The position numbers and the translations under genes were made by a program. DNA of 64,000 nt from Escherichia coli. Lineage in GTDB: Bacteria; Pseudomonadota; Gammaproteobacteria; Enterobacterales; Enterobacteriaceae. The DNA lies in the NCBI RefSeq assembly GCF_044647545.1, contig NZ_CP172818.1; one strand, given 5' to 3'. The notes under the pieces were generated by a model. The model worked only from the letters and a program-made list of their open reading frames with translations, searched no databases and was not told the origin of the DNA. Shown here piece after piece: positions 24,885 to 25,154 of the stretch (positions are counted from its first letter, which is position 1; each line of letters starts with the position of its first letter).

Positions 24885-25154
24885 AATAATTCCACAATTG
24901 ACTGCAACGTCACGTAATAGTTGCGCGGCGTGCTTGTGTTTCCTTAAAGTTAAAACTTTGATACAGATCTGATTATTTATGCAATATGCTGTCTGATTGC
25001 ATAAATATACATTAGCTGAAGCGTGATGATATAAACAATTTGCGTCTTTTGGCGTCGGGTTTGTTTCTTAATATGTCAAAAGATTGGCTATCGACGAACA
25101 GGCGAGGTAACGCTATGTTAACGGTGTAGCTATCAGAATACGGAAGGCGCGAAG

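Follow-up and report, generated by a model that had tools for sequence, protein, structure and literature searches.

The inverted repeat that separates dtpD from the ybgI-pxpBCA genes in Escherichia coli is probably an oddly spaced, unannotated operator of ArgR, through which ArgR would repress the dipeptide permease gene dtpD by promoter occlusion. We give this reading, which rests on sequence comparison, a probability of about 0.55. From the sequence of the site, the mapped transcription starts, the scores of its boxes and their conservation we infer the binding of ArgR, the resulting repression and the accommodation of a 10-bp gap between two boxes. All positions refer to the window, which is the whole 64-kb stretch of E. 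coli DNA that was analysed.

The inverted repeat and the promoters around it

An earlier note on this DNA had described an 11-bp perfect inverted repeat with a 10-bp spacer. The sequence is as described, with arms that a repeat finder and a separate scan extend to 12 nt (TATTTATGCAAT at 24974-24985 and ATTGCATAAATA at 24996-25007) on either side of the 10-nt spacer ATGCTGTCTG. If two mismatches are allowed, the symmetry reaches 16 nt (24970-24985 and 24996-25011). The repeat had also been placed between the divergent dtpD and ybgI-pxpBCA genes, and this location is confirmed by the gene order, in which dtpD (23403-24884) is read from the minus strand and ybgI-pxpBCA-nei, beginning at 25155, from the plus strand. 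Repeats with 12-nt arms and spacers of 0 to 20 are expected 0.13 times per simulated 64-kb sequence with the dinucleotide frequencies of the window, and shuffles of the 270-bp intergenic sequence contain a repeat of such size in 0.06% of trials, which indicates that the repeat exceeds chance. Of the 5422 complete E. coli genomes with the 71-bp core around the repeat, 5215 share it at 100% identity. The features of the region are as follows.

23403..24884, minus strand: dtpD coding sequence, dipeptide permease (gene context)
24945..24957, plus strand: ybgI promoter P2 (minor), -10-like TAAAGT at 24945-24950 (our own hexamer assignment), start 24957 (Cappable-seq 741852, score 15; SMRT 742628)
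24959..24975, plus strand: ybgI promoter P3 (minor), extended -10-like TGaTACAGA at 24959-24967 (our own assignment), start about 24975 within box 1' (SMRT 742646 forward)
24974..24985, no strand: left arm TATTTATGCAAT, corresponding to +13 to +24 of the dtpD transcript
24996..25007, no strand: right arm ATTGCATAAATA, over four of the six bases of the dtpD -10 hexamer, the discriminator and +1
25004..25009, minus strand: dtpD -10 hexamer TATATT, start 24997, 113-nt leader (Kim 2012; SMRT-Cappable-seq)
25091..25126, plus strand: ybgI promoter P1 (main), -35 TCGACG at 25091-25096, -10 TATGTT at 25114-25119, start 25126 (Kim 742021; Cappable-seq score 133; SMRT 742797)
25155..25898, plus strand: ybgI coding sequence, first gene of ybgI-pxpBCA-nei (gene context)

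Six distinct perfect repeats of such size, the studied one included, are found in the window. The five others, measuring 12-16 nt, are located at 13345-13374, 23358-23386, 40756-40794, 56642-56679 and 62423-62456 and look by their sequence like terminators. Those at 13345 and 23358, the latter between phrB and the end of dtpD, are terminator-like; the repeat at 56642 has 16-nt arms (TAAAAATTTATGGGCC and GGCCCATAAATTTTTA), and the one at 62423 combines 12-nt arms with a 10-nt spacer, as does the dtpD/ybgI repeat.

The promoters were placed with the help of published start sites, whose coordinates are converted to the window by subtraction of 716895 (U00096.2) or 717672 (U00096.3). Two independent mapping methods agree on a dtpD start at 24997 on the minus strand, namely the table of Kim et al. 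(2012), which lists position 741892 on the minus strand with the upstream sequence ...AATGTATATTTATGCAA and a leader of 113 nt, and SMRT-Cappable-seq, which finds the identical start (742669 reverse). The main ybgI promoter P1 is located outside the repeat and conserved across genera. Transcription from both minor ybgI starts, at 24957 and 24975, proceeds through the repeat, and in SMRT-Cappable-seq full-length reads that originate at P2 and P3 traverse the operon through ybgI to pxpA/nei. A study based on sigma-70 ChIP-seq (dPeak) describes a second RNA polymerase site at 741859, together with a long product obtained by extension of a ybgI primer. From the start of dtpD and those of P2 and P3 it follows that these promoters face each other and that the repeat is contained in their overlap. 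A generic sigma-70 scan reported no promoter at the repeat region, where the promoters are weak and were placed from the published starts.

Several further observations concern the same stretch of intergenic DNA. The convergent transcripts of the dtpD promoter and of ybgI P2/P3 (24945-24997) overlap by 23-41 nt, and transcriptional interference between dtpD and ybgI through these overlapping transcripts is possible. A 21-nt direct repeat, 71% identical and 42 bp apart, flanks ybgI P1 (TATGTCAAAAGATTGGCTATC at 25072-25092 and TATGTTAACGGTGTAGCTATC at 25114-25134). For the main ybgI start, primer extension in the dPeak study points to 742030 (window 25135), compared to 742021 (window 25126) in three sequencing-based maps, and the RegulonDB start at 741874 (window 24979), which is quoted in the dPeak paper, has no exact match to any mapped start and no -10 matched to it. 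On the minus strand, the dtpD leader contains at 24930-24945 the C/A-rich and across genera partly conserved stretch GGAAACACAAGCAC, which resembles targets of GcvB. The targets of this sRNA are C/A-rich, and it controls other transporters of peptides and amino acids. The sequence GTGTTTCcttaaAGTTA (24936-24952), which includes the -10 of ybgI P2 and is kept in Escherichia, Citrobacter and Salmonella, bears a likeness to direct repeats of the PhoP type, whose consensus is (T/G)GTTTA-N5-(T/G)GTTTA. A Cra-like half-palindrome (GCTGAAGCGTGATGAT, 25015-25030), situated between the -10 and the -35 position of dtpD, is restricted to E. coli proper; a transcriptome paper lists dtpD as newly Cra-repressed (PMC8085971).

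ARG-box matches of the two arms and their spacing

The relation of the repeat to ArgR emerges if its arms are extended outwards. As reference we used 11 ArgR-controlled promoters of strain K-12 (carAB, argECBH, argG, argD, argA, argR, argI, artJ, artP, hisJ and argF), in which boxes were located with the literature consensus WNTGAATWWWWATTCANW and a gap of 2-3 bp. The 22 boxes recovered in this way, which we take to be those of the published ArgR operators, were compiled into a symmetrised weight matrix that, in view of this choice of boxes, is not fully independent of the consensus. The boxes at dtpD are as follows.

24968..24985, no strand: box 1', TCTGATTATTTATGCAAT, 15.2 bits, 14 of 16 consensus positions
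24975..24992, no strand: box A, 3 bp from box 2, -5.0 bits in E. coli (degenerate), contains the invariant ATATGC
24996..25013, no strand: box 2, ATTGCATAAATATACATT, 16.4 bits, 14 of 16 consensus positions, -16 to +2 of dtpD

Box 1' and box 2 fall into the range of 13.5-18.5 bits that is covered by the strong boxes of the training operators on the same matrix, and they are the only 18-mers in the 64-kb window to reach at least 12 bits. Scores of that level are rare elsewhere: the matches of at least 12 bits in a further 49 kb from K-12 all reside in or near the regions of the training operators (among them an additional box upstream of argG), a set of 522 kb from other Enterobacterales contains nine boxes of at least 13 bits, four of which belong to dtpD promoters, and shuffled intergenic sequence attains 15.2 bits in 0.06% of trials. 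A search with the consensus WNTGAATWWWWATTCANW at up to two mismatches returned five matches in the window, compared to 0.59 expected, and two of the five are the arms of the repeat. Like ARG boxes in general, both extended arms are imperfect palindromes of 18 bp. The boxes of ArgR-repressed promoters usually overlap the promoter, be it the -35, the -10 or the start, and box 2 covers the -10 and +1 of dtpD. Each extended arm thus appears to be an entire palindromic ARG box of 18 bp, which is what hexameric ArgR recognizes, rather than a half-site. The perfect 12-nt symmetry would then be a by-product, since both boxes carry the common variant ATTGCATAAAT, which is also present in the operators of artJ, artP, argG and argR. 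Other variants encountered here recur in known operators as well, such as ATTGCATATAAATTCACT (artJ), ATTGCATAATTATTCTGT (artP), TTTGCATAAAAATTCAGT (argG), AGTGATTTTTTATGCATA (argD) and ...AAAAATACACT (argA and argE).

The spacing of the two boxes is unusual. In a canonical ArgR operator two boxes are placed 3 bp apart (2 bp in argR) and bound on one face of the helix, whereas the strong boxes at dtpD are separated by 10 bp, or 28 bp from centre to centre, and canonical spacing is thus not found in E. coli. It is found in the Klebsiella/Scandinavium/RIT691 group. Here, and in the JGI and Logan sequences, the partner box at the canonical distance scores 3.5-10.3 bits, which ranks it among the top 0.8-0.09% of AT-rich 18-mers, and the summed scores of the operator pairs are comparable to those of artJ, artP, argR and hisJ. 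The hexamer ATATGC, which is invariant among orthologous promoters, coincides exactly with the right half-box of this canonical partner (box A). If the heptamer ATGCAAT is removed in silico from the site in E. coli, the result is TCTGATTATTTATGCTGT, a box of 12.1 bits at the canonical distance that is better aligned with the other clade, and the 10-bp arrangement of E. coli may have arisen by a 7-bp duplication of ATGCAAT. Even as it stands, box 2 and its weak partner together amount to 11.4 bits, compared to at most 5.1 bits for each of the ArgR-bound boxes of lrp on the same matrix, and box 2 with a poor partner is by this measure well inside the range of sites occupied by ArgR.

In the window at large, the best and the seventh-best sums for canonically spaced ARG-box pairs (12.7 and 7.3 bits) belong to the near-identical sequences at 20474-20512 and 19207-19245, TGTACTAAA(T/C)AATTCGCA...TATGTTTAAAAATTGAGA, a pair that looks by its sequence like a repeated element.

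Conservation of the site and alternative explanations

In a scan for YbgI with one genome per species we identified 80 loci, nine of which have dtpD as upstream neighbour. The block TTGCATAAATATACA is confined to these nine; since it is absent upstream of ybgI where dtpD is not the neighbour, it goes with dtpD and not with ybgI. Nine further regions were collected by way of DtpD orthologues from Salmonella, two Klebsiella, Scandinavium, Yokenella, Intestinirhabdus and three metagenomic contigs. In the resulting alignment of 19 sequences, the invariant positions are ATATGC (24984-24989) and TGCATAAATATACA (24998-25011), with Yokenella, which has TGAAT for TGCAT, as the sole exception; this change amounts to one substitution in the core of box 2 and shifts it towards the consensus. 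Box 2 is strong, at 10-17 bits, in 18 of the 19 orthologous promoters, and most of the 19 taxa contain a second box at -21 or -28, so that ARG boxes are conserved at these promoters. The left arm is kept at 9-12 of its 12 positions only in Escherichia, Salmonella, Citrobacter, Kluyvera, Superficieibacter, Pseudocitrobacter and Intestinirhabdus; it is unrecognisable in the Klebsiella/Scandinavium/RIT691/Yokenella group and lost in eight of the 16 aligned taxa. The spacer is not free to vary, as its bases ATGC (24986-24989), which are part of ATATGC, are invariant. Two peculiarities of individual genomes are found in the same region. In E. coli C012 (NZ_CP119577.1; hits H15 and H27) the intergenic region is split to the right of box 2, near 25010-25018, into halves about 770 bp apart, and the sequence suggests an insertion between the -10 and -35 positions of dtpD. 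In Salmonella (locus L084, 1344-1457) the intergenic region exceeds that of E. coli by 58 bp, with a 37-codon ORF called between ybgI and dtpD.

This pattern bears directly on the proposal of the earlier note that the repeat has the geometry of an operator for a dimeric regulator. The proposal holds insofar as the site has the hallmarks of a protein operator, with its overlap of the dtpD -10 and +1 and arms that match a known repressor box, but it does not extend to a pair of dimer half-sites, whose two halves would be conserved jointly around a free spacer: the left arm is missing from about half of the orthologous promoters, and the right arm and ATATGC are invariant. If each arm of 11-12 nt were nevertheless a half-site, a separate dimeric regulator bound to both would block the dtpD promoter. 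The rarity of a perfect 12-nt palindrome by chance, the distance of 22 bp between the centres of the arms, about two helical turns, and the position of the repeat over the dtpD -10 and +1 are all as expected for such a protein. In addition, we found no regulator assigned to the dtpD/ybgI repeat in the searchable literature, the ArgR ChIP-chip and ChIP-exo site tables lying outside that search; the earlier remark to this effect thus stands for that literature, although ArgR has become a probable candidate on sequence grounds. Given the unequal conservation of the arms, the invariance of part of the spacer and the fact that both arms are already accounted for as complete, high-scoring ARG boxes, a separate dimeric regulator would no longer be needed, and we consider its existence quite unlikely. 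The repeat could alternatively function in RNA, as a hairpin within the long leader transcripts of ybgI-pxpBCA-nei. The whole stem-loop is included in transcripts from 24957, those from about 24975 would start with a 5'-terminal stem of 11 bp that could shield them from decay dependent on the 5' end, and full-length plus-strand reads are seen from both positions. The stem has a folding energy of -9.1 to -11.2 kcal/mol (z-scores from -2.4 to -3.0). Selection for RNA structure is, however, not supported, since none of the 12 pairs shows a change on both sides across 16 taxa, the paired fraction of 75.0% equals that of shuffles (74.8%) and no Rfam family matches. Moreover, the conserved block is restricted to loci with dtpD as neighbour, the upstream ybgI starts are minor ones (with a Cappable-seq score of 15 compared to 133 for P1) and the dtpD mRNA, which begins inside the right arm and includes only two of its bases, cannot form the stem. 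A role as hairpin is therefore very unlikely.

A more serious possibility, although we doubt it, is that the site is a relic at which ArgR is idle in E. coli. The right arm would in this case be the core promoter of dtpD, and the left arm an ARG box that an insertion of 7 bp has shifted or that other constraints, such as ybgI P3 or the binding of H-NS, keep in place. The 10-bp gap, which breaks the canonical geometry of ArgR operators, is readily explained in this way, the 12.1-bit box that is restored at canonical spacing by deletion of ATGCAAT suggests an insertion or duplication, and in both Kluyvera and Intestinirhabdus box 1' is decayed. In this AT-rich region, FNR ChIP-chip on an hns stpA mutant gave a weak peak (listed as 'dtpB/ybgI', which we take as dtpD/ybgI), and the literature searched contains no paper linking dtpD/ybgH to ArgR and no assignment of ArgR to the site. 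Conversely, box 1' retains 9-15 bits in Escherichia, Citrobacter and Salmonella even though the neighbouring segment 25012-25035 is unalignable between these genera, and the 14-bp invariance of TGCATAAATATACA exceeds what the -10 hexamer would need; part of the invariance of box 2 is owed to its role as -10 and start site. Finally, the score of box 2 with its weak partner surpasses that of the lrp site to which ArgR does bind.

Other regulators and promoter types were compared with the region. Judged by eye against consensus sequences, the conserved block contains no GG at -24 as for sigma-54, has the TCTGA of sigma-E with no matching -35 and contains TAAAGTTA of FliA with no -10 partner. Operators of CytR consist of half-sites TTGCA/TGCAA flanked by CRP sites. 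By eye, an activating CRP pair is not seen here, where one weak CRP/FNR-like site at 24957-24972 is located downstream of the dtpD start and nothing alike is found near 25016. None of the consensus sequences of an NsrR half-site, IHF, Fur, Lrp, OmpR, NagC/Mlc, TyrR or Nac fits. The repeat has no CTGT-N8-ACAG, the consensus of LexA, which had been predicted with BPROM (PMC7606416), and a GalR site predicted 'at dtpD 741888' is, as a U00096.3 coordinate, placed inside the dtpD coding sequence and not at the repeat. An intrinsic terminator does not fit either, as the terminator scan did not report the repeat and its stem is A+T-rich with no T tract. For FNR, the sequence TTGATacagATCtg (24958-24971) adjoins the repeat and lies outside of it, and the window contains 43 matches compared to 30 expected.

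This FNR-like sequence, which agrees at 8 of 10 positions and overlaps the starts of ybgI P2 and P3, is by sequence not above chance. The weak FNR ChIP-chip peak is listed in Table S7 of Myers 2013, where we assume 'dtpB' to be a slip for dtpD, and the first supplementary file of the same study, which we assume to be sigma-70 ChIP, contains an anaerobic peak at 741895, corresponding to the dtpD promoter. In Shigella, ybgH is anaerobically induced and lower in an fnr mutant.

Proposed action of ArgR and comparison with known operators

If the repeat is an ArgR operator, arginine-bound hexameric ArgR would occupy box 2 and thereby cover the -10, the discriminator and the start of dtpD, with a partner contact probably provided by the canonically spaced, invariant half-box ATGCT, by box 1' or by both. 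RNA polymerase would be kept off the dtpD promoter, and the dipeptide permease would be switched down when arginine is plentiful. Box 1' extends from -7 to +11 of ybgI P3 and hence over its start, so that P3 should be repressed too. Transcripts from P2 would probably pass, as ArgR is a poor roadblock to transcription, and the main promoter P1 would remain unaffected. More speculatively, and rather tentatively, ArgR may bind both strong boxes across the 10-bp gap in an arrangement that originated from a 7-bp duplication (ATGCAAT) of a canonical operator, so that a single arginine signal would shut the face-to-face promoters of dtpD and ybgI P3. Binding across this gap might engage more than four of the six DNA-binding domains of ArgR, or else two hexamers.

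Control of dtpD by ArgR, near a 5-oxoprolinase operon, has a plausible physiological logic. The genes pxpBCA are annotated as encoding 5-oxoprolinase, and this enzyme forms glutamate, a precursor of arginine. ArgR represses uptake systems for arginine, ornithine and histidine. YjdL/DtpC, to which DtpD is most closely related among its paralogues, has a preference for dipeptides whose C-terminal residue is basic (PMC3478282), and by analogy we infer the same for DtpD. If the proposal is correct, dtpD would join the ArgR regulon, where it fits physiologically, two related clades would hold the partner box in different registers, and the site would be a natural place to examine how far the ArgR hexamer depends on its 3-bp spacing. 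If ArgR does not bind, the site would be an ordinary dtpD core promoter beside a decayed box.

The canonical ArgR operators of E. coli (argF, argI, argECBH, carAB P2, artJ, artP and hisJ) resemble the dtpD site in consisting of 18-bp imperfect palindromes with the consensus WNTGAATWWWWATTCANW and in overlapping the -10 and the start site. The box variants found at dtpD are known from ArgR operators, including ATTGCATA... (artJ and artP), TTTGCATAAAAAT (argG and argR), ...ATACA (argA and argE) and TGATT...ATGCA (argD). The combination of a strong box with a weak partner is also common in such operators, as illustrated by the weak boxes of artJ and artP (0.8-3.5 bits in leave-one-out scoring). 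They differ from the dtpD site in their gap of 3 (or 2) bp, compared to 10 bp between the strong boxes of dtpD, where the canonically placed box A scores -5.0 bits. In the control region of lrp, ArgR boxes reach downstream of the start, as they do at dtpD, and one box is highly degenerate; ArgR binds there in vitro and in vivo with little regulatory effect. The lrp boxes are, however, spaced by 3 bp and located wholly downstream (+29 to +65), whereas those of dtpD have much higher scores and lie over the -10 and +1. The isolated ARG box in cer of ColE1 is similar in that ArgR is used there without a canonical partner, although at this single box ArgR works with PepA in site-specific recombination and not by promoter occlusion. 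Palindromic operators of the LacI, TetR and Cro type likewise place an inverted repeat over a core promoter, but the dtpD repeat is set apart from them by the unequal conservation of its arms, by a partly invariant spacer and by the fact that each arm is part of a full palindromic box.
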